Notes: generated by a model from the letters alone, not told the origin. A DNA stretch of 64,000 nucleotides from an uncultured Spirochaetota bacterium (GCA_963781885.1 CAWAHW010000002.1:960001-1024000); one strand, 5' to 3'. Shown: positions 32,152 to 58,338, counted from the stretch's first letter. Numbers and translations are program-made.

Positions 32152-32346
32152 TCAGTCGCCCAGCTGCTTCTCCTGGTACTCCAGGAACTTGTCGATCGGT
32201 TCGTTGTCTGCAAGGTAGCCCAGCTCCATCGCGATCTCGCCGAACAGCCGGTCGTCGCCCGACTGCTGGTGATTGATGACGATGGTCACCTGCGACTGCG
32301 ACAATGCGCCTCGCGACACCAGGAACTCCCCGATCTTCTGCGCCAT
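32152..32346 (-). CDS. 64-aa MshEN-like (putative c-di-GMP-binding) protein
   Basis: GGAGGAGG RBS; two tandem motifs KIGEFLVSRGALSQSQVTIVINHQ and LFGEIAMELGYL.....DKFLEYQ. Confidence 0.75.
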   Translation of the reverse strand: MAQKIGEFLVSRGALSQSQVTIVINHQQSGDDRLFGEIAMELGYLADNEPIDKFLEYQEKQLGD

Positions 32347-32655: not shown

Positions 32656-33489
32656 CTACTGCTTTACCGCCCCGACGAGCAATCCGGAGACGACGTACTT
32701 TTGCGCCGCCAGGTAAAGAATCACGACCGGCAGCGCCGTCAGGGTCAGGTCGGCAAAGACGAGGTTCCAACTGCTGCTGTACCTGCCGAAGAATCCATAG
32801 ACGGAGAGCGGCATGGTCCACTTTGTGGGATCGGGAAGGAAGTAGATGGGCAGGTTGATGTCGTTCCAGATGCTGAGGAAGATGAGAATGGACACCGTCA
32901 CGTTCGCCGGTGTCAGCAGGGGAAAGATGATCTTGAAAAAGATGCCGAAGAGCGACGCACCTTCCATCAGCGCGGCCTCGTCCAGCGCGCGCGGGACGCT
33001 CTTGATGAAGCCCGTGTACAGGAAGCATCCAAAAGACAGGTTCAATGCCGCGTAGATGAGGATAACACTGGTAAAGCTCCCGTAGATGTGCGCGACCTTG
33101 AGGATTTGTATCGTGGGAATGATCTGCATGGGAGCGAGGGATCCCAGGAAGAAGAAGTAGTAGAGAAAGCCGGCGAGACGGCTCCGTCTACGTGCCACGA
33201 TGAAGGAAGCGAGTGAGGAGAAGAAAACCGTCAGCGCGCTGGAGGTGGCCGCTATGAGGCAGCTGTTTACGAATGCGCGCCCCAGACTCCCTTCCCGTAC
33301 GACGTCCAGGTAGTTGCGGAACAGCCAGTGCCCGGGGAGAGAGAGGCTGAATGAGCTCGCCTCCATTGGGGTCTTGAAAGATCCCAGGACCATGTAGAGC
33401 AGTGGCGTAATCACGATGATGGAGATGAGCAGGAGAAAAAGGATGGTGACGGCGCGAAGGGCGCGGCGCCGTGCCAGCGCTTCGCTCAC
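32656..33489 (-). CDS. Carbohydrate ABC transporter permease (MalG-like)
   Basis: GFIKSVPRALDEAALMEGA (EAA loop), IWND and QKYVVSGL..GAVK; GTGA-coupled. Confidence 0.92.
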   Translation of the reverse strand: MSEALARRRALRAVTILFLLLISIIVITPLLYMVLGSFKTPMEASSFSLSLPGHWLFRNYLDVVREGSLGRAFVNSCLIAATSSALTVFFSSLASFIVARRRSRLAGFLYYFFFLGSLAPMQIIPTIQILKVAHIYGSFTSVILIYAALNLSFGCFLYTGFIKSVPRALDEAALMEGASLFGIFFKIIFPLLTPANVTVSILIFLSIWNDINLPIYFLPDPTKWTMPLSVYGFFGRYSSSWNLVFADLTLTALPVVILYLAAQKYVVSGLLVGAVKQ

Positions 33490-34370
33490 TCCTCGACCTC
33501 CTGCCGCCGCATCTGCCGGAGCAGCGGAACGCAAATGACCGCCACAAGCAGGAAGAGAACGGTATTAAGGGCCGTTCCCAGGCCCCATCTCCCCTCGGCG
33601 AACTTCGAAAGAACCTCGGTCGTGAGGACCTGAGACGCATGGCCCGGGCCGCCGTTTGTGAGCACGTACACCTCGCTGAACCCGCGCAGCCCCCCGATGA
33701 GGCTGAGGATCACATTCATGTTGATGGTCGCCGCCAAAAGGGGAATCGTGACCTTTCGCAGTCTTTGGAGGGCCGTCGCTCCGTCGATCATCGCCGCTTC
33801 GAGGTAGTCCGGCGCAATGCCTTGTATCCCGGCCAGATAAATCACCATGTGGTAGCCGGTCCACTGCCACACGCTCACGGCGGCGATGCTGATCATCACG
33901 ATGCGGGTGTTGACGAGCCAGTTCTGCGCCAGGAACCCGAGGCCGATCGACTTCAAGCAGTCATTGAGCAGCCCCAGAGGATGGAGGATCCTGGTGAACA
34001 CGACGCCCAGGACGATCGTGGAGATGACCACGGGCATGTAGAACAGCGTGCGAAAGAGGTTGTTCACGCCCATCTTCCTGCTGAGGGGTGCGCTGAGGAT
34101 GATTGCCAGTACAAATCCGAAGAGATTCTTGAAGACGACGACGACGACGGTGTAGATGAAGGTATTGCGGACCGCGCTCAGAAGCTCGGGGTCCGAGAAG
34201 ATATGGCGAAAGTTCTCAATACCAATGAACGAGGTGATCTCGCGCCCCATCGTCCAGTTGGTCGTGGCGGAACCGAAACCGATGAACAGCGGGATGATGA
34301 AGAGGACGACGTACAGCAGGAAGGCGGGAGCGACCCAGAAGTAGGTGTAAAGTCTGCTGCTCTCTCTCAT
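33486..34370 (-). CDS. Carbohydrate ABC transporter permease (MalF-like)
   Basis: YLAGIQGI..DYLEAAMIDGA and LTNGGPG. Confidence 0.92.
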   Translation of the reverse strand: MRESSRLYTYFWVAPAFLLYVVLFIIPLFIGFGSATTNWTMGREITSFIGIENFRHIFSDPELLSAVRNTFIYTVVVVVFKNLFGFVLAIILSAPLSRKMGVNNLFRTLFYMPVVISTIVLGVVFTRILHPLGLLNDCLKSIGLGFLAQNWLVNTRIVMISIAAVSVWQWTGYHMVIYLAGIQGIAPDYLEAAMIDGATALQRLRKVTIPLLAATINMNVILSLIGGLRGFSEVYVLTNGGPGHASQVLTTEVLSKFAEGRWGLGTALNTVLFLLVAVICVPLLRQMRRQEVEE

Positions 34371-34437
34371 GTGCCGTCCTTTCGCTGCCCTTCATGGAAA
34401 AGCGGGTCGTCGTGCGCGGCAGCCTCTCCCTGCTGTC

Positions 34438-36933
34438 TCACTCCTTCGTTGCCTTGACCGGTCGCGGCGAGGAGTATGACGTTCTCACCGTCACGGTTCC
34501 CAGCGTCCCCGGCGGGATCCGGACCGTGTCTCCCTCCACCTGCACGGCGACGTCCTTCCTGTCGAGCGCTTCAGCTTTCTCCAGGGCATACTCCTTCGGG
34601 CAGCGAAGCCGCACGCGCACCGTTGCTCCGGGCCTCGGCGGCAGCGATATCTGCGCATCGATCATTCCGTCCTCGAGATGAGAACGAATGGTATACGATA
34701 CGGGACCCCACCGCGTCGGCGCTCCCGCTACCCCGAACTCCTTTCCGTCCTCCAGCCATGTCCGCGGGACTCCGCATCCCAGCGTGATGGTCCGGTTGAT
34801 AGGGTCCTCGAACAAAAAAAGCCACTTCGCGATCGTCGGCACCGTCATCTGGGCGGGGCTGCAGTACGGCGTGCTGACGCCGTTGTCCCGGTCCAGGTCG
34901 ACACACTCCCGCACGGTCCATGTTCCCCGCGTGTGGGCGTGGAACGCGTGCGCGTAGAACACGAGCAGCGCTTCCGGCACCAGGTCATGCTGGAGGAGGC
35001 CGTGCACCGCCTCGCTCACGAGGAACGCGACGACGTGGTAGCGGTTGTTGAAGATGCCCAGCGTGGTCCCGCCGCGGGCACCGGCGATCTCCATGATACG
35101 TTCCACTGTCTCCTTCGAGAGAACGCCGGACCAGAACAGCTCGGACCAGACCCGGTTCTCGTCGTAGGACTCCGGGCAGCTCCGATAGAGCGCCTCCCAG
35201 TAGAAGCGCGACGACCCGGCGATGATGGGAAGACCAACGACGCCGTCCTTCTCGATCCACGAGCGCTCCACGCCGCGCCGCGCGTCCTCCAGCAGCACGG
35301 AGGCGCTCGCGGCGAGTGACTCGGCCCGACGGATCATTTCCTGGTCTTTCTGGCGCCGGCCTGCCCGCCGCCAGGTGCTGGCGATGTCCCGCAGCCCTCG
35401 CCATGCCAGCGCGCTGTTCGCCAGATACGGCCGCTCGTAGTCCAGGGAATTGAGGGAAGGCGTCAGGAAATTGATGTCCGCCTCATGGTAGCCGTTGATC
35501 ATGCCGTAGGCGGCGCTGCCGGGATCGCGGCGCCTCGCCTCCTGCCAGCGCGTCAGCAGCAGGCCGACGATCGCCTTGACCTTGCCGTCGTGCTCGCGGA
35601 GGAGCGAATCGTCGTCAGTGTAGTCAGCGTACTGGGCCAGGCAGCTCAGCATCTCGCCATACTTGCCGATCTGCGGACCGCGGTACCTGAGGGAGCCGTC
35701 GCCGCGGACGAAATGCCGGAAGTAGTAGTCGAGGTATGCGCGGGAGGTTGCGAAATGCCCCCACTCGTTGTAGCAGGTAACCGTGCTCGTCAGGAGATCC
35801 TGGAAGCCGTCATGCTCTTCTCCCCCGTACGCCCTGTCGCAGACCCCGTACTTCGGGTGGTCACCCCTGCGGGTGATCCTCTCCCGCGCCATTGCGTGGC
35901 GCGAAAAATCCTCGATCCAGCTCTCTGGAGCCCGGATCGTCATGCCGCCGTCCAGGTGATCGTGCCAGTACCTGTGAACGCGCAGGAGCGATCGATAGAA
36001 GCCCGCCGGCTCCGCGCCCGTCGGGTTTGGATAGCTCAGGAACGAGTCCACATACTTCACTTCCTGGACGTGACCCTCGTGCAGCTCCATGAACCGGTAC
36101 CAGGCCGGTTGCAGGAATGTTGTGGCGCCCTCGGGGGGAGCGAATGCAACGACCTCCCAGCACGCATCCGCACCCATGGGATAAACAGTGCGGACGACCG
36201 GGAGCCAGCCTCCGACCAGGCCTTCCCAGAGGTTCTCGGCCTGGATCGCTTCCGAGGCGCCCTTCGCGACGATGGTCGTTGGCACGCGCCACACCATGGC
36301 GGCGTCCGTGTGGTCCGTGTAATAGAGCGGGATCACGTCTGCGGAAACGGGAGTCCCGATGAACGTATGGGGCCGCTCGTGGCCCTCCCAGAAGTCCCTT
36401 CGGATGGGCGGAAAACACGCGCGGACGGCCTTGGGATCCGGATCCCTTGCTCCTTCCAGCAGCTCATTGCGCAGGACATCTGGTTGCCCGGCGAAGGTCT
36501 GTTCGTTGCCCTCCCTCATGGACGAGAACGCCTGACTGCCGGCGGGAAGCGCTTCTTCCTTCCTGTGGCCATTGTACCAGCCCGCGCCGCCTCCCGTGGT
36601 CGGCTCCAGCGACTTGGCAAGCAGAAGGCGCACGCCGTCTTCACGGACGAACGCGATCCTTCCCTCTGTCGCATCCACCTCCTCGAAGACGGCCGTCATC
36701 GCCCCGTCGTCCTCGAAGACCGCCATCAGCGTCCAGGCTCCTGCCCTGCCGAGCCCCTCCACCACCGTCTGCGCGCCGGTCCCTTTGGTGTGCACCAGGA
36801 CGGTCGTGCCGCGGAAGGAGACGCGGGGGGCGTCCGGCCGTGCGTCCGGCTGCTCCCCGAACGGCCTTTTCGCGTCGGTGAAGCCGGGGCAGGCGAGCTT
36901 GCTCTCATCCCGATGGTTCGTGGGCTGCCTCAT
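34438..36933 (-). CDS. Uncharacterised 831-aa protein, probable (alpha/alpha)6 glycosidase-like
   Basis: GAGGAG RBS; lies between the binding protein and permeases. C-terminal GVPRTWL..G..FGV.GAPTRWGPVSY resembles six-hairpin glycosidase tails. No signal peptide. Confidence 0.7.
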   Translation of the reverse strand: MRQPTNHRDESKLACPGFTDAKRPFGEQPDARPDAPRVSFRGTTVLVHTKGTGAQTVVEGLGRAGAWTLMAVFEDDGAMTAVFEEVDATEGRIAFVREDGVRLLLAKSLEPTTGGGAGWYNGHRKEEALPAGSQAFSSMREGNEQTFAGQPDVLRNELLEGARDPDPKAVRACFPPIRRDFWEGHERPHTFIGTPVSADVIPLYYTDHTDAAMVWRVPTTIVAKGASEAIQAENLWEGLVGGWLPVVRTVYPMGADACWEVVAFAPPEGATTFLQPAWYRFMELHEGHVQEVKYVDSFLSYPNPTGAEPAGFYRSLLRVHRYWHDHLDGGMTIRAPESWIEDFSRHAMARERITRRGDHPKYGVCDRAYGGEEHDGFQDLLTSTVTCYNEWGHFATSRAYLDYYFRHFVRGDGSLRYRGPQIGKYGEMLSCLAQYADYTDDDSLLREHDGKVKAIVGLLLTRWQEARRRDPGSAAYGMINGYHEADINFLTPSLNSLDYERPYLANSALAWRGLRDIASTWRRAGRRQKDQEMIRRAESLAASASVLLEDARRGVERSWIEKDGVVGLPIIAGSSRFYWEALYRSCPESYDENRVWSELFWSGVLSKETVERIMEIAGARGGTTLGIFNNRYHVVAFLVSEAVHGLLQHDLVPEALLVFYAHAFHAHTRGTWTVRECVDLDRDNGVSTPYCSPAQMTVPTIAKWLFLFEDPINRTITLGCGVPRTWLEDGKEFGVAGAPTRWGPVSYTIRSHLEDGMIDAQISLPPRPGATVRVRLRCPKEYALEKAEALDRKDVAVQVEGDTVRIPPGTLGTVTVRTSYSSPRPVKATKE

Positions 36934-36998
36934 TGCTGTTCTCCTCTGCACGTGCGGCGCGTTTGTTCCCCGCCTCTGGTGTCGCATGGTGCGGCCAG

Positions 36999-37026
36999 AA
37001 AAAAGCGGGGCGCGCAGGCCCCGCTT
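36999..37026 (-). terminator. Intrinsic terminator/attenuator after the binding-protein gene
   Basis: Minus strand: 9-bp stem AAGCGGGGC/GCCCCGCTT running into a T6 tract. Confidence 0.7.
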
Positions 37027-37066
37027 GTCCTGGAACTATTCAGAAGTACGCGCGGAGGGCTCTTCC

Positions 37067-38416
37067 TCAGAATCCCGGGTAGCCCTTCGCCTTCATGAGC
37101 TCCTCGAACTTCGCATCCCACGCCGTCAGCACCTGCTGCGGCGTTTTGGCGCCGCCGATCATGTCCTGGAAGTACTTCCACAGGTCGTTCAGGTCCACCT
37201 TCACGAAGGCGTTTGCTTCCACCGACACTTTCCCCGTCTTGATGTACGTGTCGTAGATCTGCTGATCGATGGGCTGCAGCTGTGCCGCCGCCACGTCCTT
37301 GAAGTTGGGCATAAAGGCCCGCGAGGAAACGGCGTTGACGGCCGCTATCTGCGGGGCCTGCGAGAGAAAGTCGATGAGCCGCTCGGCCGCGGCAACGTGC
37401 TTTGCCTTCTGGGGGACGAAGAACAGGGGGCCGAGCTGGGCCTGCACGATGACATTCATCGCCGCGTCATCCCATACGGGGAACGGGAAGAGGCCGAGGT
37501 GGAGGCTCGGATCCTTGCTCGCCATGTCGCTCACGAGCGCGTTGGCGCTTATCATCATGGCGTAGTTTCCCGACGCCATCGCGGCCGGCCCGCCGTTGTA
37601 GTCGTCGGACAGGGCCGTGGGCTGGAAGTAGCCCTTCTGGACCAGGGTGTTTCCGCGCGCGAGCGCATCAAGGAAGCCCGGCACGTCCGCCCACTTCATC
37701 TCGTTCTTGTTGATCTTCTCGAAGAGCCGGGGATCCTTCCGGGTCACCCAGACTCCCCATGCCGAGGTCGTCCAGATCTGGAAGGTCCAGACATCCTTGA
37801 ACGGCCCATAAATAGGCGTGATGCCGTTCGCCTTGAGCGTCTCGCAAACCGCGAGGAGCTGCTGATACGTCGTGGGGACGGCGAGGTTGAGCTTCTTGAA
37901 GATGTCGATGTTGTAAACCATCCCGAGACCCGCGGTCGAAATGACGGGGCTGAACCCGTGGATCTTCCCGTCGGGAGCCTTCAGGAGAGCCGGCTGCTGC
38001 AGCCGCGCCACCCACGGCTGGTTGCCGAGATCCACCATGTTCTGCTCCGCCCCGAGCTCGTTTTCCGCGGAGACCTTGTTGTAGAACATGATGTCGGACG
38101 GCTCGCCCGTGGCGAGCTGCGTCTGGAGCGTCTGGGTGGTCTGCGCGTCCGGAATCAGAAGAAGCTGGATCTTGACGCCGGGGTTTTTGGCTTCGAAAGC
38201 GTCAAAGTTCGGGTTCGGCTGATAGACGACCCACGAGTCCCCCCTGTTGAAATCCTGGCTGCCCGCGATGGTCAGGTTGATGGGCTGGCTCGGGTTGCCG
38301 CCAGAGCTCTCCGACGTTCCTGCCGCAAAGAGCGCCCCGCCTGACACCATGAGAAGGACAGCCGCCAGCGTGACAAGGAACGACAGCGACCTGCCCCCCG
38401 TCTTCCATGTGATCAT
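37067..38416 (-). CDS. Sugar ABC transporter substrate-binding protein
   Basis: Signal peptide; FEAKNPGVKI, YNIDIFKKLNL.VPTTYQQL..VCE.LKANGITP (SBP family 1). Confidence 0.92.
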   Translation of the reverse strand: MITWKTGGRSLSFLVTLAAVLLMVSGGALFAAGTSESSGGNPSQPINLTIAGSQDFNRGDSWVVYQPNPNFDAFEAKNPGVKIQLLLIPDAQTTQTLQTQLATGEPSDIMFYNKVSAENELGAEQNMVDLGNQPWVARLQQPALLKAPDGKIHGFSPVISTAGLGMVYNIDIFKKLNLAVPTTYQQLLAVCETLKANGITPIYGPFKDVWTFQIWTTSAWGVWVTRKDPRLFEKINKNEMKWADVPGFLDALARGNTLVQKGYFQPTALSDDYNGGPAAMASGNYAMMISANALVSDMASKDPSLHLGLFPFPVWDDAAMNVIVQAQLGPLFFVPQKAKHVAAAERLIDFLSQAPQIAAVNAVSSRAFMPNFKDVAAAQLQPIDQQIYDTYIKTGKVSVEANAFVKVDLNDLWKYFQDMIGGAKTPQQVLTAWDAKFEELMKAKGYPGF

Positions 38417-38459
38417 GTATTCCCCCTCGCCACTGTCCCTTTTCTCGCAGTGGCGGGAA

Positions 38460-38516
38460 AACCTAGCACGGGGTATGCCCACTGTAAATGCACAATCGTG
38501 TACTCGTGCGGTGCAC
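38460..38516 (-). promoter_or_regulatory. Putative promoter of the binding-protein operon with upstream GTGCA boxes
   Basis: Minus-strand TTTACA-17 nt-TAGGTT with extended TG; TGCAC/TGTAC/TGCAC at 38489, 38499 and 38512, directly upstream of the -35. Confidence 0.5.
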
Positions 38517-38582
38517 TTTCCTCTCCCGTGCTCCCCTTTACCGGCGGTGGGTCCATGGTATACTTCTGGCGGGATCGGGAAG

Positions 38583-40364
38583 ATGCACGTCAAGCTCCAG
38601 ACCAGAATCGTTGCATACTTTACGGTCCTGCTGCTCGTCGTGATCGGGGTTTTCGCCATCTTCTTCGACGTCGTCGTGAGCCGGCGGTTCGAGGCGATGG
38701 CAAGCCAGAACGTCGTGCAGCTCGCCGTGAAGCTCTCCCAGCACGTGGATTCCTATATCTTGGAAATGGATCAGGTGTCGAAGAGCTTCGCGACCAACGA
38801 AAACGTGCTTGCCGTCCTCAGCGACATCGCTCGCAACGGCCCGCCACGGAACAGCTACCTGCAGCTTCTCGCGTCACGGACCCTCGACGGCGCCTTCGCC
38901 AGCGCCCTTACCGTCACCTCCATCCCCACCTGCTCGGTCTACCTCTACGATACCAGCGGCGCTTACCGCCATTCCTTCAACGGACGCCACGCTCACTTCG
39001 ATGCTGTGATGCAGAACCCCGCCAACCGCGAAGCTCTGGCAAACTGGCAGAGGCTGCTCGACGCCGCGGTGAGCGACGTCCCGAGCGCCGGCCCCACCAG
39101 GCTCATCTCCCTGGTGCGTCCGGTCTTCAGCCTGAGCGGCATCCAGTACGGCTACGTGGAGGTCCAGGACGAGTATGCCGAGCTGCAGAAGATCTGCGAC
39201 GTCGGCTCGACGGGGCAGGTGATAATCCTGGACGCGCAGCACGGGGAAGTGTATCCCCTTGACCCCGGGCACCCCGCGGAGGTCTCCCGCCTTCGGCTGG
39301 GCAGCGCCGACAGCACGGCAGGCACCTTTCCCTCTCCCGGGGGGTACCTCTACTCGTACGCGTGGTCTGACTACTCCGGGTTCACCGTCTTCGTGAAGGA
39401 ACGGGAGAGCGACGTCCTCGGGCCGCTCATGTATCTTCGCACGGCAACGTACGCGACCATTTTTCTCGTCACGGTCTTCGCCCTTGGCATGGTGTTCGTC
39501 ATATCCGCGGTGCTCATGCAGCCAATCCGCACGCTCCGCGACAGCGTGCTCCACGTCAGCCTCGACAACATGAGGCTGGACATGAACGTGGACGCTCACC
39601 ACGACGAAATCCAGCTCCTGAGCAGGGCTTTCCAGGACATGCTCGCGCGGCTGAAGGGGGCCGTCGAGAAGGCGATGCTCGCCAACCGTGAGGAGATGCG
39701 GGCGCGCTTCGGCGCGCTGCAGGCGCGCATCGCCCCACACTTCATCCACAACGTCCTGTACCTCATCAGCGTGCAGGCGCACGAGAAGCGGACCGACGAC
39801 GTGGAGATGACATGCAAGAAGCTGTCCGACATGCTGCGCTACGTCGTGCAATCGCCGTTCAAGACCGTCACCATCGACGACGAGGTCGCCCATGCCTCCG
39901 ATTACCTTTCCCTCCAGAAGCAGAACTACGAGGATCTCCTGACGTACACCGTGAGGGTCGAGCCGAGCGTTCGTTCCGTCACCCTGCCGCGTCTGGTCAT
40001 CCAGCCCTTCGTGGAGAACTCCATTCACAATGGCTTCAAGACCAAACTCCCGCCCTGGAAGATCGACGTCGCGTGCGAGGCGGCGGAAGACAGATGGTGC
40101 ATCACCATCTCCGACAACGGCTGCGGCATCGACGAGGCAACGATCCGGCACCTGCGTGAAAGAATGGCCGCAGAGCAGGACGAGTCCGAAGCCTTGCGGG
40201 AACCGACGGAGCAGGGAATGGACGGCATGGCGATCATCAATACCTATGGCCGGCTGCGTCTCATGTATGGGGATCGGCTGGGCTTCGACATTCGTCCCAA
40301 CGAGGAGGGGGGCACGACAATCCGTCTCTCGGGTCCGCTGCTTCCCGCCGCCGCGGAGCACTGA
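38583..40364 (+). CDS. YesM/LytS-type sensor histidine kinase
   Basis: Two TMs, Cache and HAMP regions, LQARIAPHFIHNVL, IQPFVENSIHNG and ISDNGCG. Confidence 0.92.
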   Translation: MHVKLQTRIVAYFTVLLLVVIGVFAIFFDVVVSRRFEAMASQNVVQLAVKLSQHVDSYILEMDQVSKSFATNENVLAVLSDIARNGPPRNSYLQLLASRTLDGAFASALTVTSIPTCSVYLYDTSGAYRHSFNGRHAHFDAVMQNPANREALANWQRLLDAAVSDVPSAGPTRLISLVRPVFSLSGIQYGYVEVQDEYAELQKICDVGSTGQVIILDAQHGEVYPLDPGHPAEVSRLRLGSADSTAGTFPSPGGYLYSYAWSDYSGFTVFVKERESDVLGPLMYLRTATYATIFLVTVFALGMVFVISAVLMQPIRTLRDSVLHVSLDNMRLDMNVDAHHDEIQLLSRAFQDMLARLKGAVEKAMLANREEMRARFGALQARIAPHFIHNVLYLISVQAHEKRTDDVEMTCKKLSDMLRYVVQSPFKTVTIDDEVAHASDYLSLQKQNYEDLLTYTVRVEPSVRSVTLPRLVIQPFVENSIHNGFKTKLPPWKIDVACEAAEDRWCITISDNGCGIDEATIRHLRERMAAEQDESEALREPTEQGMDGMAIINTYGRLRLMYGDRLGFDIRPNEEGGTTIRLSGPLLPAAAEH

Positions 40365-40375
40365 CGAGGCGGACC

Positions 40376-41890
40376 ATGACGTACTCCGCACTGGTCGTCG
40401 AGGACAGCAGGCCGATACTCCGGAACATCGCTCAGCAGATCGAGTCCGTTCATGACCGCGTGCGCGTGGTGGCGACCGCCTGCAACGGCCGGGAAGCGCT
40501 GATGAAGCTGAGGGGCTCCCGGGTGGATATCGTGTTCTCGGATATCAAGATGCCGGTGCTGGGCGGCCTGGATTTCCTGGGCGAGGCTCGGAGCCTGAAT
40601 CCCGGTTTGAGATGCGTCATCATCAGCGGCTATGACGATTTCGAGTTTGCGCGGCAGGCAATCCAGCTCGGCGTGGACGCCTACATCCTGAAACCGGTGA
40701 CGAAGGACGAGCTCAGAACCGTCGTGGAGAAGATCGTCTCTTCCCTGGACCTCGGAAGACGCGGGGTGTTCCAGGAGGAGCTTTCGAGGGCCCTCAAGCG
40801 TGAGGAGGCCGTCTGGCATGCACCGAACGACGTCCTGCGGGGACCGTATGGGATATGCCTCCTTCGGTGCGGGGCGCTGCGAGATGGCCCATGCGCCGTG
40901 GACATGGCGGACATGCGCGCGACATTCAGCCATGCCGGCTCCTGCGATGGGAGCCTCTTTTTCGCCGAAACGCGCGGCCATAGCGAGCTCGCGGTCGTCT
41001 GTGATCTTCAGGCTCTTTCGCACGAGGCATGGAGGGACATCTGTTCCCGCGTCTTCGAATCGCTGTCCCGTCGGGGGCAGGTTGCCCGCATGGCATGTTC
41101 CAGCGGGTATGCGGACGTGCCCGGGCTGCCTTCGCACGCGGCCTTCCTCTCGCAGTGTCTCGAGGAGCACGTCTGCCTCGACACGCCGACCCTCTTCTGG
41201 CCCGACGGCATTTCGTCAGAGCCGGGAATGGGCATTCCGCGTGACGAGTTTGCGCGTTTCAAAGAGGAAGCGGGTTTGATGGCCGGCGCAGGGTCCGTGG
41301 ACGAGTTCAGGCTGCGGCTGGAGGATTTTGTGCGCTCCTGGCGCGCACGGAGCCTCACGCTGATCACGGTTCGGAAGCTCCTCGGACTGATGGTGGACGC
41401 GATTGACGAGTGCGCGAATGATCCCTCGTCGACCCGAGACAGCACCGTCACGGTGGAGAAGCTGCTGGGGCGAAGCGGAAGCTATGAGACGCTCGTCGAT
41501 GAGCTGTGCCTCGTCTTCCAGGCAGCGATCGAGAGGAGAAAAGACGCGGACTCCTCGTCGGAAAGCATCGTCCAGGCGGCGATCGACCTGTTCCGCCGCA
41601 ATCTCGCTCGGAACATCACGATGAGTGAAGTCGCCGCGCGGCTCGGATTCTCCCTTTCCTATGTCCATCGCGTCCTGCGTTCGGCGCTGGGCAAGGCACC
41701 CATGGAATATTACAACGATATGAAGCTCGAAGAAGCAAAGCGCCTGTTGGCGCGCTATCCGCACAGGAAGGTGAAAGAAATCGCCCTTTCACTGGGATTC
41801 GAGGATCAGCACTACTTCAGCCGTGTCTTCAAGACCCACGTATCGCTGAGCCCCCTGGAGTATCGCGAGCAAGCCACGCGGGCACGCTGA
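40376..41890 (+). CDS. YesN-type response regulator (REC plus AraC HTH)
   Basis: SDIKMP, ISGYDDFEFARQAI, YILKP; C-terminal VKEIALSLGFEDQHYFSRVFK. Confidence 0.93.
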   Translation: MTYSALVVEDSRPILRNIAQQIESVHDRVRVVATACNGREALMKLRGSRVDIVFSDIKMPVLGGLDFLGEARSLNPGLRCVIISGYDDFEFARQAIQLGVDAYILKPVTKDELRTVVEKIVSSLDLGRRGVFQEELSRALKREEAVWHAPNDVLRGPYGICLLRCGALRDGPCAVDMADMRATFSHAGSCDGSLFFAETRGHSELAVVCDLQALSHEAWRDICSRVFESLSRRGQVARMACSSGYADVPGLPSHAAFLSQCLEEHVCLDTPTLFWPDGISSEPGMGIPRDEFARFKEEAGLMAGAGSVDEFRLRLEDFVRSWRARSLTLITVRKLLGLMVDAIDECANDPSSTRDSTVTVEKLLGRSGSYETLVDELCLVFQAAIERRKDADSSSESIVQAAIDLFRRNLARNITMSEVAARLGFSLSYVHRVLRSALGKAPMEYYNDMKLEEAKRLLARYPHRKVKEIALSLGFEDQHYFSRVFKTHVSLSPLEYREQATRAR

Positions 41891-41942: not shown

Positions 41943-43148
41943 TTGGTGTTCCGTCGTCCTGAGTGGATCGAAATCGTCATAGCCGGGATCTCCCTGGTCG
42001 TGCTCGCCTATGTCAACCTCCCGGAGGTCAATGCGCGGAGCGCAGGTCTTATGCGCAGCGAGATTCTCGTCGGTAGCTGTCTGACGGCCCTGTGCGTCGT
42101 GGGTGCCTCGACGCTGCAACGCAAGGTGCACCGCGCGGGACTCCTGCTCCTCCATTTTTTCTCTTACATCCTGCTTCTCACCGCGTTGGCAGGATCAAAC
42201 CTGATCGCGGAAATCCTGCTCCTCTTGCTGCTCGAGCTCCACGTTTCGCTGCGTTTGCCCTTGCGGCCGGCCCTCGCGACCAACGGCGTGGTCCTCGCGG
42301 CGACAACGCTGGTGGGGCTCGGAAGCGGCGCCGTGGACCGGGTCGACGTGCTGCTTTTCGGCGCCATCGTCCTCTTTCTCGCCGAGCTCGCCGTGTACTA
42401 CCGCGAGCGCTTGGTCCGCGCCTCAGGCACAGTCGAGCTCCAGAGCCGATCGCTTGAGAACCTTGCGGCGGCAAACCAGTCGTTTGTCGCGCACCTCGAG
42501 AGCGTCGAAGCGGAGAGCGCCGAGCGCGAGCGCCTCCTGATCACTCGGGAGCTGCACGACTGCGTCGGCTATGGCATGACCAACATCGCCATGATGATGA
42601 ACGCGTCTCGATATCTGAAGGACGAGAATCCGGAAAAGCTCGTGGAGTACTGCCAGAAGACCAAAGAGCTCGCCTCGAGCACCCTGCAGGAAACCCGCCA
42701 AATCCTGTACAAGCTCCGCGCCGTCTCGGCGCAGGCCACTCCGGGCGCCCCGCTGTTTTTCGCCCGGCTCTGCCGCGACTTCTCAGAGGCCACCGGCGTC
42801 CGGACGGACTGCCACGTCGGCAACCTGCCCTCATCCGTGAACGAGCGCGTCTTCGGCACGCTGTTCCGGGCCGTCCAGGTGGGCTTCATCAACGCCCTTC
42901 GGCACGGCAGCACCGGACACATCGTTCTTGGTTTCTGGGTCACCGACGCCGAGCTTTGCGTACGGATCTGGAACGACACGCCGCGGGGGCTCTCGGATCC
43001 GGAGGCCGTCGGCGAGGGGATTGGCCTGAAGGGGATCCGGGAGCGCCTCGATCTCGTGAACGGCCGGCTGTCATACGGACCGGTTCCCGACGGCTACCAG
43101 CTTACGATCATGATCCCCCGCGAGGAGACAGGAATTGCCGCCGACTAA
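41943..43148 (+). CDS. NarX/DesK-type (HisKA_3) membrane sensor kinase
   Basis: Several TMs; ERLLITRELHDCVG, INALRHG and GIGLKGIRER. Confidence 0.88.
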   Translation: MVFRRPEWIEIVIAGISLVVLAYVNLPEVNARSAGLMRSEILVGSCLTALCVVGASTLQRKVHRAGLLLLHFFSYILLLTALAGSNLIAEILLLLLLELHVSLRLPLRPALATNGVVLAATTLVGLGSGAVDRVDVLLFGAIVLFLAELAVYYRERLVRASGTVELQSRSLENLAAANQSFVAHLESVEAESAERERLLITRELHDCVGYGMTNIAMMMNASRYLKDENPEKLVEYCQKTKELASSTLQETRQILYKLRAVSAQATPGAPLFFARLCRDFSEATGVRTDCHVGNLPSSVNERVFGTLFRAVQVGFINALRHGSTGHIVLGFWVTDAELCVRIWNDTPRGLSDPEAVGEGIGLKGIRERLDLVNGRLSYGPVPDGYQLTIMIPREETGIAAD

Positions 43149-43824
43149 AGTTTTGATCGTCGACGATCAGCACTTGTTTGCCGAAAGCCTGAAGTTCGTC
43201 CTGCAAGGCGAGAGTCGCGGCAGGATCGAGGTGATCGCCATCGCCGCCAACGGACGGGAGGCGGTCGAGCTGGTGCAGGCGACGACCCCGGATGTCATCC
43301 TTATGGACATCCGCATGCCGGTCATGGATGGAGTCGACGCGACGGCCGCGATACATGAAAGCTGGCCGAACATCAAGATCCTGATCCTCACCACTTTCGA
43401 TGATGACGAGCTCGCGATAAGCGCGCTCTCCCGCGGCGCGACGGGGTATGTCTTGAAGGACGTGGACCCGCCCGACCTCATCCTCTCGATCGAGGCAGTT
43501 CATCGAGGCGCCTTCTTTATCTCTCCCGCAGTCGGGCTGAAACTGGTGGATATCATGAAACCGGACGGTGGGGGCGCCGCCAAGGAGAGAGAAGAGCTCG
43601 TCCTCAGCCTCATGCGAGATGTGCCTTCGCTCACCCGGCGGGAGGCTGAGATCCTCTACCTCGCCGCGAAGGCACGCGCCAACAAGAGTATCGGCGACGA
43701 GCTCTTTATTTCCGAAAAGACGGTGAAGAACCACCTGAGCTCGATCTACCAGAAACTCTCGATCCACAATCGGCTGCAGCTCATCCACTACGTCGCGTCC
43801 GCCAAAACCCGCGGGCCCCGATGA
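43135..43824 (+). CDS. NarL/LuxR family response regulator
   Basis: LIVDDQ, LMDIRMP, LTTFDDD and LTRREAEIL...NKSI.DELFISEKTVKNH. Confidence 0.95.
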   Translation: MPPTKVLIVDDQHLFAESLKFVLQGESRGRIEVIAIAANGREAVELVQATTPDVILMDIRMPVMDGVDATAAIHESWPNIKILILTTFDDDELAISALSRGATGYVLKDVDPPDLILSIEAVHRGAFFISPAVGLKLVDIMKPDGGGAAKEREELVLSLMRDVPSLTRREAEILYLAAKARANKSIGDELFISEKTVKNHLSSIYQKLSIHNRLQLIHYVASAKTRGPR

Positions 43825-43845
43825 GCGGCGGCGAGCAACCAGAGA

Positions 43846-43904
43846 GTCCCGCGAAAGTCCCAGGGAACGGCTCCTGGCACGCCTTTCTGGGTCCTTTTTG
43901 GGAC
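43846..43904. promoter_or_regulatory. Imperfect inverted repeat, candidate response-regulator site
   Basis: GTCCCGCGAAAGTCCCAG (43846-43863) vs the reverse complement of 43887-43904, GTCCCAAAAAGGACCCAG (13/18). Confidence 0.4.
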
Positions 43905-43951
43905 GCATGTCCTATGGAGCCGGATCGAAGCGGCCGATAGACTGGCGACTG

Positions 43952-44932
43952 GTGAAGACAACGCTTTTCATCTCGCCCGTTCGCACTCCGTCCCTCGGAC
44001 GCCGGTCGTTTCTCAAGGAGCTCGCGCGCCAGCGGTACCTCATGATCCTGGTGCTCCCCGCGGTTCTCTGGATGCTGCTTTTTAACTACGTCCCCATGGG
44101 CGGCCTGATCATTGCCTTCCAGGAGTACGATCCGTTCCTCGGTCCGATCAGAGGCTTTACGCATAGTCGCTGGGTGGGGCTCGCGCACTTCCTTGAAGCC
44201 TTTACGGACAAGTACTTCCTCCACGCGCTCTGGAACACCATTGCGTACAGCCTCCTTCGGCTCGCGTTCGGCTTCCCCATCCCCATCGCGTTCGCCGTCC
44301 TCCTGAACGAGCTTCACGGCCTTCGCTTCAAAAAGTTCGTTCAAACCGTCAGCTATTTGCCGCAGTTCATCTCCTGGGTTTTCGTCACCGCTTTCATCTA
44401 CGTGATCCTGGCGACGGACAACGGGATCGCGAATCGGATGCTCCTCCAGCTCGGCATCATCCAGAAGCCGATCCTGTTTCTCGCCAAGGAATCGACGGTT
44501 CCTCCTCTCATGGTCATCAGCAGCGTCTGGAAGAGCTTTGGGTGGAATTCGATCATCTACATCGCGGCCATCACGGCTGTCGATCCGACGTTGTACGAGG
44601 CCGCGGCAATCGACGGGGCCCGGCGGTGGACCCGGATCTGGTCTATCACGCTCCCTTCGGTGAAGTCCACGATCGTCATCCTCCTGATCTTCAACATCGC
44701 CGGCCTGATCAGCGCCAGTTTCGAGTTCTTTGAGCAGATGTACCTCCTGAGCAACGCCATCATCCACGACGCCACCGAGATCATAGACACCTACACGTAC
44801 CGCATGGGCATCCAGCTTTCGCGGTACTCTTACGCCTCGGCCGTGGGAATGTTCCGCTCGGTTGCGGCCGTGCTGCTTCTCACGATCGCAAACTACGTTT
44901 CGCGACGCCTTACCGGGGAGAGTCTGTACTGA
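43952..44932 (+). CDS. Polysaccharide ABC permease (LplB-like)
   Basis: FNYVPMGGLIIAF, VQTVSYLPQFISWV, WKSFGWNSIIY.AAI and LYEAAAIDGA. Start uncertain (43898-43952). Confidence 0.92.
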   Translation: MKTTLFISPVRTPSLGRRSFLKELARQRYLMILVLPAVLWMLLFNYVPMGGLIIAFQEYDPFLGPIRGFTHSRWVGLAHFLEAFTDKYFLHALWNTIAYSLLRLAFGFPIPIAFAVLLNELHGLRFKKFVQTVSYLPQFISWVFVTAFIYVILATDNGIANRMLLQLGIIQKPILFLAKESTVPPLMVISSVWKSFGWNSIIYIAAITAVDPTLYEAAAIDGARRWTRIWSITLPSVKSTIVILLIFNIAGLISASFEFFEQMYLLSNAIIHDATEIIDTYTYRMGIQLSRYSYASAVGMFRSVAAVLLLTIANYVSRRLTGESLY

Positions 44933-45825
44933 TGACGACCGCGGGGCAAAAACGGCGAGGTCGCGTGCCGCCGGGCGAGTGGGCGTTCCGCGTCGTGAAT
45001 GTCTCCCTGATGCTGTTTGTCATCGCGGCGACATTCTACCCCTTCTATTACGTGATCGTATCTTCTCTGAACGATCCGATCGACCTGCTGCGGGGTCCGA
45101 TCTACCTGCTTCCCCGGAAGTTCTCCTTGGAAAATTTCCGTTATGTGGCAAAGGACCCTCAGGTCATCCGTGCCGCCTATGTCACGGTTGCCCGAACAGT
45201 GATCGGCAGTGTGTGTGGCGTGTTCTTTACTGCGGCATTTGCGTACGGGATCTCCAAGACCAGGCTCGTGGGCCGCCGGTTCATCGTTGGGATGACCTTG
45301 GTGACGATCTACTTTAGCGGCGGACTGATACCGACGTACCTGCTGTTGACGAAGATCCTGGGCTTGTACGGCAACTTCTTGGTCTACATCCTCCCCAACA
45401 TGTTCAACGCCTTCTTTGCGTTCATCATGCTCTCCTTCTTTCGCACCGTCTCGGCCGAGATAGAGGATTCGGCGCGCATGGACGGTGCGAACGACCTGCT
45501 CATATTCATTCGGCTCATTCTTCCACTCTCGACTCCCGTGCTGGCCACCATCGCGCTGTTTTTTGGTGTGGGACACTGGAACTCGTGGTTTGACGCCATG
45601 CTTTATGGCGGGTCAAGGCTTATTACGCTGCAACAGTACCTCGTCAAAGCTATCCAGTCGGTCAACGTCAGTGCCGTGGCGGCGAACTACTCGACCACGG
45701 CCGTCTCGGCACAGTCTCTTCGGTTGGCCACGATGGTGATCACGACATTCCCCATCGTTGTCACCTACCCGTTTCTCCAGCGGTATTTCGTCAAGGGAGT
45801 GATGATCGGGGCCATCAAGGGATAG
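44932..45825 (+). CDS. Polysaccharide ABC permease (LplC-like)
   Basis: FSGGLIPTY, EDSARMDGAND, VGHWNSWFD and YPFLQRYFVKGVMIGAIKG. Confidence 0.93.
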   Translation: MTTAGQKRRGRVPPGEWAFRVVNVSLMLFVIAATFYPFYYVIVSSLNDPIDLLRGPIYLLPRKFSLENFRYVAKDPQVIRAAYVTVARTVIGSVCGVFFTAAFAYGISKTRLVGRRFIVGMTLVTIYFSGGLIPTYLLLTKILGLYGNFLVYILPNMFNAFFAFIMLSFFRTVSAEIEDSARMDGANDLLIFIRLILPLSTPVLATIALFFGVGHWNSWFDAMLYGGSRLITLQQYLVKAIQSVNVSAVAANYSTTAVSAQSLRLATMVITTFPIVVTYPFLQRYFVKGVMIGAIKG

Positions 45826-45887
45826 TGCTTCATCCGGTCGTTGACCGGAACGACACACACGTCGCAAACGCGACAAGGAGGAAATCC

Positions 45888-47576
45888 ATGGCTGTGTACG
45901 TGCGGAAGGTTCTATGTCTGGCGGCCATCGGGCTGCTCATCGCTGCGGCCGGATTTGCAAGCGGCAAGGCCGAAACGGGGGGCACGGCCGCCGCAGGCGC
46001 CACGGCCGCCGCGCCCGCGGGAGCGTTGTCCTGGAAGCAGGACACGTCTCCATTCACCTTCGACCTGTTTTTCTACGGAGCCTGGGGTACGGCCTACCCT
46101 TGGAAGGGCAGTTACGTGGAGAAGCTCATCGAAGGCAAGACGGGTGTCCACCCGAACATCATCGTGCCGACCGGTGACGAGAAGGAGTACCTGTCCGTGC
46201 TCGTCGCCTCAGGAAAGTTCCCCGACGCGATGATCCTGGAGCTGATCAGCCCTACCTTGAAACGGTTGATCGAGACCGGTAACGTCTACCCCATCAAGGA
46301 TCTCACGGACAAGTACGCGCCGGAGTTCTGGGACGCGATCCCGCAAGAGATCAAGTCCTATCACGCAGCGGCGGACGGCAAACTCTATGTGGTCCCCTCG
46401 TTCTTTACCTCCAAAGAGGAATGGCAGCAGAGCCCGGAGAAGGATGTCGTCCGGCCTTTCTTCATTCAAAAAGGGATCTACGAGGCTCTCGGTAAGCCCT
46501 CAACTGACACGCCGGACAAGCTCTTTGCGGTCCTGCAGACGATCAAGCAGAAGTACCCGGATCGCAAACCCTTCAGCATCGAGCCACCTCTGGATGTCAA
46601 CCAATGGGGGTTCGTAGGCTCCTTCACGCTGCAGTACCTGCTTGGCGCCTACGCACCGGAGACCTTTGGAACAACTGGCACAAGAAGCTACTACTTGGAC
46701 GGAAATACAATCAAGCTCGTCTTTCAGTCTCCCGGCATGGTGGAGAGCCTTCGATTCCTGAACCGGCTCTACCGGGCCGGCATCCTGAGCGTCGACAACC
46801 TGACGGAGCAACAAGGGCCCTGGGCAGACGAGGTCAACTCCGGGATTTACGGGGTGGTCACCCGCTACCCGATCGATATCTTCAAGACTCACAACCCGCA
46901 GATCCTGAAGGTCACCGGTGATCCGGGCCGCACGTATGTCCCTCTCGAGTATTTGAAGATCAACGGAAAAGATCCGCAGTACTCAGAGGGGTCACGTTCA
47001 CCGGGGTGGGTTGGCTCAGTGGTGATGAAGTCGGCAAAGAACCCGGGGAGGATCATCCGGTATTTTGAATACAGCTGGTCTCAAGAGGGGCAGATGGATA
47101 ACCTCTTCGGCAAGCTCGGCGAGACTTATCAAATGGTCAACGGAGTGCCCAAGTACCTTCCCAGCATCCTTGAGGAGCAGGCCACGGGCGGCGACGCCTT
47201 CTGGGACAAGTACGGCTTCGAACGCCGCTTGATGATGTGGCGGTCGGTGCCCGCGACGTACCAGAAGCTCGCCATCGCGCCCCAGGCGTACTCCGATTAC
47301 CTGATGGCCACTGGAAAATACGCCAAGGACGTCTGGAACCTCGGTCTCGACAACCTGGACCCGGACCCCGCGTCCCCGGAAGGCGTGGCGCTGCAGCGGA
47401 TGAAAGACGTGTGGAACAGGACCATGGCAAAGATGATCATTGCCGATTCGGACGCCGTGTTCACCGACACGTATAACGCCGGCATCAAGGAAATCACCGA
47501 TGCAGGACTGTCCAACGTCCAGAAAGTACTGTGGGACCGGCACCTCGCCGATCTCAAGCGCAAGCAAGGAAACTAG
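45888..47576 (+). CDS. Oligosaccharide ABC substrate-binding protein (LplA-like)
   Basis: AAGGAGG RBS, signal peptide, Ala-rich linker; IEGKTGV, ASGKFPD and DGKLYVVP. Confidence 0.9.
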   Translation: MAVYVRKVLCLAAIGLLIAAAGFASGKAETGGTAAAGATAAAPAGALSWKQDTSPFTFDLFFYGAWGTAYPWKGSYVEKLIEGKTGVHPNIIVPTGDEKEYLSVLVASGKFPDAMILELISPTLKRLIETGNVYPIKDLTDKYAPEFWDAIPQEIKSYHAAADGKLYVVPSFFTSKEEWQQSPEKDVVRPFFIQKGIYEALGKPSTDTPDKLFAVLQTIKQKYPDRKPFSIEPPLDVNQWGFVGSFTLQYLLGAYAPETFGTTGTRSYYLDGNTIKLVFQSPGMVESLRFLNRLYRAGILSVDNLTEQQGPWADEVNSGIYGVVTRYPIDIFKTHNPQILKVTGDPGRTYVPLEYLKINGKDPQYSEGSRSPGWVGSVVMKSAKNPGRIIRYFEYSWSQEGQMDNLFGKLGETYQMVNGVPKYLPSILEEQATGGDAFWDKYGFERRLMMWRSVPATYQKLAIAPQAYSDYLMATGKYAKDVWNLGLDNLDPDPASPEGVALQRMKDVWNRTMAKMIIADSDAVFTDTYNAGIKEITDAGLSNVQKVLWDRHLADLKRKQGN

Positions 47577-47603
47577 CGGGTCGAGTTCTGGTCTTCTGTC
47601 GTC

Positions 47604-47632
47604 CGGGGTGCCTGCGACTCGCGGGCACCCCG
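47604..47632 (+). terminator. GC-rich hairpin after the binding-protein gene (stabiliser or terminator)
   Basis: CGGGGTGCCTGCG-ACT-CGCGGGCACCCCG, 13-bp stem, no U-tract. Confidence 0.55.
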
Positions 47633-47750
47633 ATGCTCAACAGAAGCCATGAGGCCCGATAAGAGTTGCGCGAAAGCGGTCAACGTGCCGGAAGGGGAGG
47701 GCGGGCTGGACAAGACCATTCCGGTGTGCATCATGGCGGAGTTCTAGACG

Positions 47751-51604: not shown

Positions 51605-51767
51605 ACGGGGAGGTTTCGAGGTGCCCTTCCGGCGGAAACGCGGCAACACCAGAACTCAGATCCGTGCGATAATGGGGTAAACCTGATCAAGGCAAAGCTG
51701 CGTCCCTGCGCGGTCCCTGACCCCTTTTCCTTGCGTTTTGCCGGAGAATGAGGATAATGCATGCACC

Positions 51768-55141: not shown

Positions 55142-55191
55142 CGTCACGCACTGCCAGCGTAATTTTGTCCACCTTTATTAAAAGATTCGCG

Positions 55192-55220
55192 TTGTGCCCC
55201 CGGATTTCTTCCACTACCAT
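55192..55220 (+). promoter_or_regulatory. Putative promoter of the third ABC/GH31 operon
   Basis: TTGTGC-17 nt-TACCAT with an AT-rich upstream tract. Confidence 0.4.
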
Positions 55221-55276
55221 GCGTTTTCAGCTCACGGGCTCATTGCAGCCACGACTCGAACGCAAGGAGGTTTTGC

Positions 55277-56485: not shown

Positions 56486-56515
56486 GGTCGACCGCGGGAG
56501 GTAACTCAACCAGGA

Positions 56516-56550
56516 CGGGAGCGCGCAACGCATGGCGTGGCGCGCTCCCG
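56516..56550 (+). terminator. GC-rich hairpin after the binding-protein gene (mRNA stabiliser)
   Basis: CGGGAGCGCGC-A-ACGC-ATG-GCGT-G-GCGCGCTCCCG, no U-tract. Confidence 0.55.
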
Positions 56551-56583
56551 CGTATTGCGGGCTCGGGCCGCACGGGGACGCGA

Positions 56584-58325: not shown

Positions 58326-58338
58326 GGGAGAGCGAGTC

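Follow-up and report, generated by a model that had tools for sequence, protein, structure and literature searches.

The bacterial system that most resembles the one considered here in its presumed working is the hydroxyproline (Hyp)-arabinoside system of Bifidobacterium longum and Xanthomonas, in which, according to PMC8106489, the glycoside hydrolases (GHs) GH43 HypAA, GH121 HypBA2 and GH127 HypBA1 are accompanied by an ATP-binding cassette (ABC) transporter with 6LCE, named there as a beta-arabinobiose-binding protein. Two further sources list PL27, GH95, GH127, GH121 and GH43 as activities degrading arabinogalactan-proteins (AGPs) or extensins (PMC7933510) and give an AGP cluster with GH127, PL27, GH27, GH36, GH31, GH2 and GH42 (PMC13712309). 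Here we analyzed an 831-amino-acid (aa) protein encoded on the minus strand at 34438-36933 of a 64,000-nucleotide (nt) stretch from an uncultured Spirochaetota bacterium (GCA_963781885.1 CAWAHW010000002.1:960001-1024000; hereafter the window, whose coordinates are positions within this whole stretch). Judged against Pfam, NCBIfam, the PDB and the literature, the protein probably represents a new GH family, and the best explanation as a whole, with a probability of about 0.45, is that it would be a cytoplasmic hydrolase trimming imported, arabinose-containing O-glycans derived from plant hydroxyproline-rich glycoproteins (HRGPs). Gene order, family, fold, conserved residues and neighbourhoods were computed, and residue roles, stereochemistry, co-regulation and substrate class were inferred.

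Scanning of the 831-aa protein found no match in Pfam at E<=0.01 or in NCBIfam at E<=0.1, and PDB sequence searches with the protein alone and with two family profiles (A1 and A2) returned only chance rows, neither profile finding a GH at E<=10. Of 7,999 candidates scored in a word-indexed search, 159 were relatives at E<=1e-3; among the 120 relatives listed, every named one was a ‘hypothetical protein’ and none had a precomputed Pfam domain, the nearest (P0002; family proteins and loci are cited by our P and L numbers) being likewise 831 aa long and 88% identical. With an exhaustive profile search, the number of 50%-identity cluster representatives, many of them fragments, was 496 at E<=1e-30, 1,997 at 1e-10 and 3,428 at 1e-3. 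When 61 of the 150 listed distant representatives were scanned with Pfam, no glycosidase domain was found over the family region: the GH15 model had no match at E<=0.05, the MGH1-like and trehalase models had none either, and one member carried a sub-threshold GH95 fragment (E 0.042). A second homologue search, started from a diverse profile, had no annotated family among its 120 listed matches, and 29 of 30 Atlas clusters had no common Pfam family, rank 27 being an amylo-alpha-1,6-glucosidase-like (GDE_C) cluster (0.94). Profile-profile comparison with GH95, GH127, GH29, DUF5695 and the family encoded upstream of the L013 member gave probabilities below 3% throughout, which is a weak test given target alignments of 4-24 sequences. 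A literature search, with subscription journals, bioRxiv supplements and CAZy itself outside its coverage, found no description of the enzyme family. The family comprises hundreds of 50%-identity clusters from at least seven bacterial phyla, with no annotation, and is therefore missed by carbohydrate-active enzyme censuses of soil, peat and gut genomes.

The fold was predicted with AlphaFold2 on a 121-sequence alignment (predicted local-distance difference test, pLDDT, 92.9; predicted template-modelling score, pTM, 0.94). The model consists of an N-terminal beta region (about residues 35-300), a linker helix (309-326), a barrel (339-706; window 34816-35919, minus strand) and a C-terminal beta domain (about 707-820). 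Twelve helices make up the barrel (339-354, 378-391, 394-407, 422-439, 443-466, 504-527, 531-557, 592-602, 607-619, 639-648, 652-665 and 692-706), and such a twelve-helix double barrel is a membership feature of the (alpha/alpha)6 GH superfamily. Foldseek placed GH95 at the top (E 5.8e-10), followed by GH78, GH94, GH116, GH65 and GH15 entries, at 8-14% identity. In VIA-align the best match was GH15 5z3a (Z 26.1, root-mean-square deviation (rmsd) 3.4, 315 residues aligned over about 333-708, 13% identity), the Kribbella flavida isomaltose glucohydrolase according to PMC12446779, followed by the GH63 entries 4wvb, 2z07 and YgjK (Z 24.4-24.5) and by MmpH 7qsj (Z 24.3-24.5), with rmsd 3.2-3.5, about 310 residues aligned and 11-13% identity. 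Other GH15 entries scored Z 23-24, with about 460 residues aligned for bacterial enzymes having an N-terminal beta-sandwich; GH94 entries (Z 22-23) gave the longest coverage, about 510-535 aligned residues spanning 105-815, and GH78 entries scored Z 19-22 over residues 191-820. GH142 5mqs (Z 19.0, rmsd 3.9, 410 aligned, 7% identity) ranked under the GH15 and GH63 rows, GH121 6m5a was not among the 50 structural matches listed, and neither 5mqs nor 6m5a was matched in the PDB sequence searches. The 50 listed chains ranged from Z 26.1 to 17.7 and were mostly carbohydrate-active barrels, with no standout among 48,161 PDB chains, and a BFVD fold search gave nothing at E<=0.001. In contrast, DUF5695, modelled likewise, had a single standout (Z 28.7 vs 13.4 for the next). 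With no structural standout and identities near 10-14%, the protein looks like a separate family, and we consider it highly likely that its fold and chemistry are those of a glycoside hydrolase.

Conservation was counted over 223 stored members of at least 600 residues. The loop that joins barrel helices 5 and 6 holds E484-A485-D486 (35476-35484, minus strand; E484 in 215/223 and D486 in 219/223), with E484 or D486 as the candidate general acid, and E676, in the helix 11-12 loop (34906-34908, minus strand; 219/223) and the most conserved among 104 acidic residues scored, is the general-base (or nucleophile) candidate. D379, where barrel helix 2 begins (35797-35799, minus strand; Asp in 176/223, Pro in 35/223), is a candidate for anchoring the sugar at the −1 site, R594 and E598 of barrel helix 8 (35140-35154, minus strand; 218/223 and 215/223) probably line the pocket, and Y369 is kept in 214 of the full-length members; E484, D486, R594, E598 and E676 occur together in 208. 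By helix count, conserved carboxylates were found in the helix 5-6 and 11-12 loops, a feature of the superfamily and of GH15, whose acid and base lie in the α5-α6 and α11-α12 loops (PMC12446779). The base of GH63, GH37 and GH78 occupies the helix 11-12 loop position, where GH94 binds phosphate (PMC7263609). On the model, E484/D486 and E676 would be equivalent to the GH15 acid and base; that the equivalences come from helix counting, not superposition, weighs against the reading. A single-displacement (inverting) reaction would be the simplest mechanism, being the default for such barrels; against it, retention is described for a GH15 homologue that carries both of these Glu residues (PMC12446779), so inversion is not assured.

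GH15 (5Z3A, together with bacterial glucoamylase 1LF6, glucodextranase 1ULV and dextran dextrinase 9JU0) is the best structural match and shares the conserved Glu in both loops as well as a Tyr in the helix 1-2 loop (PMC12446779), but the enzyme has no Pfam or profile-to-PDB match, carries an extra C-terminal beta domain and belongs to a family with no alpha-glucan genes among its neighbours. GH63 and MmpH 7qsj have acid and base in the same loops (PMC7263609), whereas the enzyme has no MGH1-like or trehalase Pfam match and is 11-13% identical to them. With GH94 phosphorylases and GH78 rhamnosidases it shares the three-part architecture, yet at 8-14% identity and without a Pfam match, and it has Glu at the base position instead of the phosphate site of GH94. 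The patterns WE[ED] and [WF]xRD, which we take to be those of GH15, are absent from the enzyme.

Among the families considered and rejected, GH95 membership found no Pfam match and an hhalign probability of 0.7% against a small, six-sequence alignment; GH127/GH146 membership found no Pfam Beta-AFase-like match and less than 3% against 24 GH127 sequences; and the Pfam catalytic-domain models of GH63, GH37, GH78, GH65, GH94, GH116 and amylo-alpha-1,6-glucosidase were not matched. The fold of GH99 is a beta/alpha barrel. GH195, whose endo-mannanase domain is distantly related to GH99 (PMC13063451), was ruled out since the window protein is an (alpha/alpha)6 barrel, unlike that GH99-related domain.

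The initial annotation, made from the DNA alone, had read the 831-aa protein as a new or uncharacterised glycosidase or phosphorylase that matches no recognised GH signature, with a tail of the kind found behind (alpha/alpha)6 barrels in GH65/78/94/95-like enzymes. The missing signature is borne out by Pfam, NCBIfam and PDB sequence searches, and the barrel glycosidase by the agreement of the AlphaFold model with Foldseek and VIA-align and by the conserved carboxylates; the families named do lie on the same plateau, but GH15 and then GH63/MmpH score best, and the phosphorylase half of the proposal becomes unlikely in view of E676 (219/223) and the signal peptides on relatives. All six motifs that it quoted are present (residues 359-379, 481-486, 589-598, 673-679, 721-727 and 737-747) and constitute the conserved core of the family. 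Neither a full-length match to a characterised family nor a non-glycosidase fold lacking conserved carboxylates appeared in these searches, the two outcomes set beforehand as refuting it.

A second subfamily (35/223 members) has Pro at D379 and mostly Tyr at R418, Ala at 421 and Trp at F637; with the pocket changed in this way, the family is probably not uniform in specificity. Signal peptides occur on most Acidobacteriota and Verrucomicrobiota members (starts approximate). P0142, P0145, P0147, P0150 and others belong to the second subfamily, P0142 being fused to DUF4962 and heparinase II/III-like domains, and L066 encodes a divergent paralogue (1162-3813, minus strand; about 25% identity) with a Tat-like signal.

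To relate the family to substrates, gene neighbourhoods were collected by scanning GTDB with the pattern [YT]RGPE[IMT]G[QK]Y, which confirmed 108 loci; 80 of them were retained. The pattern misses Gln at 421, found in the window protein, P0002, P0003, P0009, P0047 and P0050, so the window's nearest relatives are unsampled, as is the second subfamily. Open reading frames (ORFs) of the loci were clustered, and cluster representatives and most unclustered ORFs, short ones skipped, were scanned with Pfam; the tree was made with FastTree without L028, L036, L045, L063, L069 and L076 (no single ORF >600 aa), and all neighbourhood counts are an internal contrast among loci, not one with a genome-wide background. 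GH127/146 genes were found within 10 kb in 22/80 loci from five phyla (Acidobacteriota 12, Verrucomicrobiota 3, Actinomycetota 3, Bacillota 3, Chloroflexota 1). Of the 57 tree rows whose DNA extends to 15 kb or more, 19 have them, and the trait changes 5 times on the tree; L056 alone has six GH127/146-type genes, and in L080 (1 locus of 80) an L-arabinose isomerase gene lies between GH127 and the family gene. Proline-racemase-family genes neighbour the family in 9/80 loci, DHDPS-family genes in 4, DPP-IV in 4, M24 X-Pro peptidases in 2, DUF885 in 12 and DUF5695 in 5. The remaining GH neighbours were GH43 (7 loci), GH29 (6), GH95 (5), GHL6 (2) and GH36, GH2, GH3 and GH9 (2 each); DUF2961/GH172 occurs in 10 loci and as a fragment in L027. 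No GH13 was present in any scanned ORF of the 80 loci, no GH121 was found in them, and GH43 was restricted to the DUF2961 clade.

The racemase-family proteins scored under the NCBIfam cut-offs for every named activity, and it is because of the company of the neighbouring genes that we label them putative hydroxyproline epimerases of a hydroxyproline pathway. The binding protein of L018 has 6lce, the beta-arabinobiose-binding protein of Bifidobacterium, as its best match (E 6.5e-51 vs 2e-22 for the next), and that of L019 is 38% identical to it. DUF5695 (PF18951; L072:5777-8593, minus strand, and also L012, L018, L062 and L080) folds like BACCELL_00875 (Foldseek E 1e-27, template-modelling score 0.82 on the target; Z 28.7, rmsd 2.8, 643 aligned, 17% identity), which we take to be a PL27 rhamno-glucurono lyase; the model suggests a PL27-like activity for DUF5695, a domain mentioned in a single, unrelated paper in the literature searched. 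Together, the GH127, proline-racemase-family, X-Pro peptidase, beta-arabinobiose-type binding protein and DUF5695 neighbours tie much of the family to HRGPs. GH127, the 6LCE-like binding proteins of L018 and L019 and ABC permeases beside family members are what these loci share with the Hyp-arabinoside system; they differ from it in carrying the new enzyme family, DUF5695, a GH127/GH76-like family, X-Pro peptidases and hydroxyproline-catabolic genes.

Searches of plasmid records with three family members returned only that of Granulicella tundricola (WP_232298890.1), whose member is annotated as a Tat-signal protein. Its flanks hold DUF885, GH31-like, TonB-type receptor, aminopeptidase P, prolyl isomerase, M1 peptidase, DHDPS-family, FAD oxidoreductase and proline-racemase-family genes, and the annotation shows no GH127 within 15 kb. 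Ten loci (L047, L049, L050, L052, L053, L054, L060, L064, L067 and L071) carry a Terriglobia cassette of proline-racemase family, amino-acid permease, small hypothetical protein, amidase, DUF885, creatininase family, GH127, the enzyme family and Crp regulators; DUF885 may be a peptidase for Hyp/Pro peptides. In the sister clade of the window's clade, the gene immediately upstream of the enzyme gene encodes a protein of about 720 aa from another family without annotation (L013:7776-9980, plus strand; L015:7860-10010 and 12424-15309; L018:7797-9956; L069:2446-4560); it has no Pfam or NCBIfam match, and its Atlas clusters show minor GH127/GH76 shares. In the Bacillota loci L016 (3669-5312, plus strand) and L017 (8270-9868, plus strand), the gene directly upstream of the family gene encodes an unannotated protein of 540 aa, one part of which weakly resembles CBM13/CBM6. 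GHL6 (PF14871) lies in an ABC operon beside the family gene in Devosia-like loci (L004:3549-5594 and L009:14576-16630, both minus strand).

On the FastTree tree, the window protein itself falls among Acidimicrobiales and Devosia-like loci (12 rows; support 100), with L076 placed there by 70% identity and not by the tree, and with L005 and L006, which encode the same family protein, both counted. Members of this clade have ABC transporters and no signal peptide. The family protein of L005/L006 (58% identical) is accompanied by GH29, GH95, GH2 and GH3, in L005 also by proline-racemase- and DHDPS-family genes, and the L005/L006 binding protein finds its best PDB match in an arabino-oligosaccharide binder (E 5e-16). 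In the sister group L012-L019, the pocket motifs are nearly those of the window's clade, and 7/8 loci have GH127. The window's own binding protein gives no ligand clue, its best PDB match (E 2e-18) being among 22 generic sugar-binding proteins.

On this evidence we propose that the sensor would detect an extracellular oligosaccharide and the regulator would switch on the divergent operon, in which a hairpin would keep the binding-protein mRNA in excess. The ABC system, with its ATPase encoded elsewhere, would import an oligosaccharide fragment, and the enzyme, as a cytoplasmic exo-glycoside hydrolase built on an (alpha/alpha)6 barrel of GH15/GH63 type, would use E484 (or D486) as its acid and E676 as its base to remove a terminal sugar or short unit from it. 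The fragment would most likely come from plant HRGP O-glycans, namely extensin Hyp-arabinosides or AGP side chains, a substrate class that we favour for much of the family and that falls a little short of even odds for the window's copy. L-arabinofuranoside occurs both in Hyp-arabinosides (Ara3/4-Hyp) and in fucose- or galactose-capped AGP side chains, and because the residue is common to them it is our first, doubtful guess for the bond cleaved. AGP fucosylation appears in reference titles and a table of PMC7933510. Tentatively, and at clearly less than even odds taken jointly, the family may belong to an undescribed route, spread over several phyla, through which bacteria of soil and peat consume plant HRGPs whole: the new family, GH127/146, the PL27-like DUF5695 and the GH127/GH76-like family would strip the O-glycans, X-Pro peptidases and DUF885 would cut the backbone and a hydroxyproline epimerase pathway would consume the amino acid, replacing the GH43/GH121 steps of Bifidobacterium and Xanthomonas, with the window copy tuned to fucose-capped fragments. 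If the HRGP link is true, it would explain the recycling of extensin and AGP carbon and nitrogen beyond the two genera worked out and give a new tool for mapping HRGP glycans. The fold and candidate catalytic residues make the family directly assayable, the neighbourhoods give a short substrate list, and cultured sources exist in Granulicella tundricola (WP_232298890.1) and Actinotalea fermentans NBRC 105374.

Several observations weigh against an HRGP substrate. Synteny of homologues, the check proposed in the initial annotation, points to HRGPs for much of the family, but the window's clade stands beside fucosidase-family genes (GH29/GH95/GHL6, the last of which we take to be fucosidase-like) in 9/12 loci and beside GH127 in 0/12, with a hydroxyproline-type gene only in L005 and L009 and an M24 peptidase in L007. 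The window's own operon has no substrate-telling gene; none of the binding proteins from the 80 loci is orthologous to that of the window (25% over 216 residues at best), and the closest named relatives of the window's protein belong to an enzyme-less Paenibacillus module and to a module beside a GH27-like gene. Across the family, a single cassette shared by close Terriglobia relatives accounts for 10 of the 22 GH127 loci, many Acidobacteriota loci have no carbohydrate neighbour at all, the binding proteins of L004, L013 and L017 have generic or xylo-oligosaccharide-type best PDB matches, and the DUF2961/GH172 (10/80) and fucose-isomerase-like (2 loci) context points to other pentoses.

The fucosidase-family neighbours would also suit action of the window's clade on fucose- or L-galactose-bearing oligosaccharides from outside HRGPs (xyloglucan, complex xylan side chains or microbial glycans), with cleavage of the deoxyhexose itself or of the residue beneath it. 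GH29, GH95 or GHL6 in 9/12 clade loci, a fuconolactonase-like gene below cut-off in L011, the GH95, GH39 and GH31 genes 11-23 kb off in the window and the lead of GH95 in the Foldseek list (E 5.8e-10) speak for it, but the sister group L012-L019, with nearly the same pocket motifs, shows only arabinose and proline clues (GH127 in 7/8), the window's GH95, GH39 and GH31 genes are under other regulators and transporters, and profile comparison with GH95 and GH29 gave less than 1% probability; we regard this as unlikely. Quite unlikely is an enzyme of alpha-D-galactosidase or beta-L-arabinopyranosidase type, acting on extensin Ser-O-alpha-Gal, capped AGP arabinose or raffinose-type sugars. It would accord with the cleavage of alpha-D-glycosides by the closest barrels, GH15 and GH63 (PMC12446779), with the GH36-like genes of L016/L017 (best NCBIfam model beta-L-arabinopyranosidase, below cut-off) and GH97 of L057, and with window transporter relatives that include MsmE-type binders and a module beside a GH27-like gene (family assigned by eye), but it would be redundant where GH36 or GH97 is already present, and only 3/80 loci have either. 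Action of the family on D-pentofuranosides (D-arabinan, D-fructofuranoside or riboside fragments) is suggested by DUF2961 in 10/80 loci and the L027 fragment, fucose-isomerase-like genes in L051 and L066 and ribokinase in L027, L043 and L045; as these loci make up a remote clade (33-36% identity) whose pocket motifs differ, and none is in the window's clade, we think it improbable.

Other alternatives concern the chemistry or the novelty of the family rather than its substrate. That it is a divergent member of a family listed in CAZy without a Pfam model or solved structure is hardly more probable than the D-pentofuranoside reading, since named relatives are all ‘hypothetical protein’, 29/30 Atlas clusters lack a common Pfam family, no standout was seen among 48,161 PDB chains and no literature description was found, subscription journals being mostly uncovered. 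A lyase or an epimerase built on this fold ranks low and is very improbable, the best structural matches being hydrolases and both carboxylate positions being filled. A glycoside phosphorylase like GH94 or GH65 could be read from the longest structural coverage, which is with GH94, from the cytoplasmic window copy and from a GFQD sequence that resembles the GH94 motif GFRD. It is nevertheless the least probable of these readings, because Glu (E676, 219/223) stands at the base position, the place, inferred from topology, where GH94 binds phosphate (PMC7263609), and because many relatives have signal peptides (most Acidobacteriota/Verrucomicrobiota members, several of them beside TonB receptors, and the Tat-signal protein of Granulicella).

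Returning to the window, the preferred reading of a cytoplasmic hydrolase with an importer is set in a module whose minus-strand genes run in the order binding protein, 831-aa ORF and two permeases, so that the enzyme lies between binding protein and permeases. The sugar-binding protein of a CUT1-type ABC importer, with a signal peptide, is encoded at 37067-38416 (SBP_bac_1, E 4.6e-26), the enzyme ORF starts with the ATG at 36933 behind an AGAGGAG ribosome site, and permease 1 (33486-34370; BPD_transp_1, E 3e-17) is followed by permease 2 (32656-33489; BPD_transp_1, E 1.4e-12), whose start overlaps the permease 1 stop. On the plus strand lie a YesM-type sensor histidine kinase (38583-40364; dCache, HAMP, His_kinase PF06580 and HATPase) and a YesN-type response regulator (40376-41890; receiver and AraC helix-turn-helix). 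Between the binding-protein and enzyme genes, a hairpin at 37003-37026 (minus strand) with a 9-bp stem followed by a T run is the longest of 14 terminator-like sites (8.6 ± 3.4 in shuffles) and likely attenuates or stabilises the transcript. The 166-bp divergent control region between the binding-protein and sensor-kinase genes (38417-38582) contains no convincing direct repeat or regulator-box repeat and no above-chance promoter, its single sigma-70-like match (38537-38564, plus strand) being at chance level (1 found vs 1.8 ± 1.3 expected). The enzyme has no hydrophobic N-terminus (best 11-residue hydropathy in residues 1-60 of 0.81 vs 2.96 for the binding protein), and it is, by its sequence, predicted to be cytoplasmic without a signal peptide.

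Gene order and coordinates thus agree with the initial annotation of a minus-strand operon divergent from a YesM/YesN-type pair, and the hydropathy values with its view that the 831-aa ORF lacks a signal peptide. Its description of the uptake module as complete was wrong in one part: binding protein and two permeases are present, but no ABC ATPase gene is in the module, the only Walker-A ORFs of at least 250 codons in the window lying at ~12.0-12.9 kb and, as a FecCD-linked ATPase, at ~30.9-32.1 kb. The module would have to borrow one; a shared ATPase encoded elsewhere in the genome is common for CUT1-type importers. Nor are transporter and sensor the enzyme's own, as had been suggested: YesM/YesN-regulated CUT1 modules include one of Paenibacillus cellulosilyticus (NZ_CP054609.1) with a matching sensor-transporter layout (binding protein 38.5%, permeases 47% and 58% and kinase 32% identical) but no enzyme gene, whereas the window has the enzyme inserted, and family members elsewhere travel with unrelated ABC, TonB or major facilitator superfamily transporters and LacI or Crp regulators. 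The transporter-sensor module is of an ordinary kind, and the novelty sits in the enzyme family.

The window as a whole is a series of sugar-uptake islands. Downstream on the plus strand, 41943-51604 holds a HisKA_3/LuxR pair, ABC permeases, a binding protein, GH95 (47751-50153) and GH39 (50111-51604), and 51738-63998 holds a YesM/YesN pair, an ABC system, GH31 (58085-60319), GntR, a split transketolase and a further binding protein. On the other side, an unassigned 64-aa ORF with a ribosome site lies 3′ of the operon (32152-32346, minus strand), followed by a uridine-kinase-domain protein with a long N-terminal part (25501-26700, minus strand), a nuclease of the beta-CASP metallo-beta-lactamase fold whose best NCBIfam model is far under cut-off (23767-25179, plus strand) and a galactokinase (14134-15456, plus strand).

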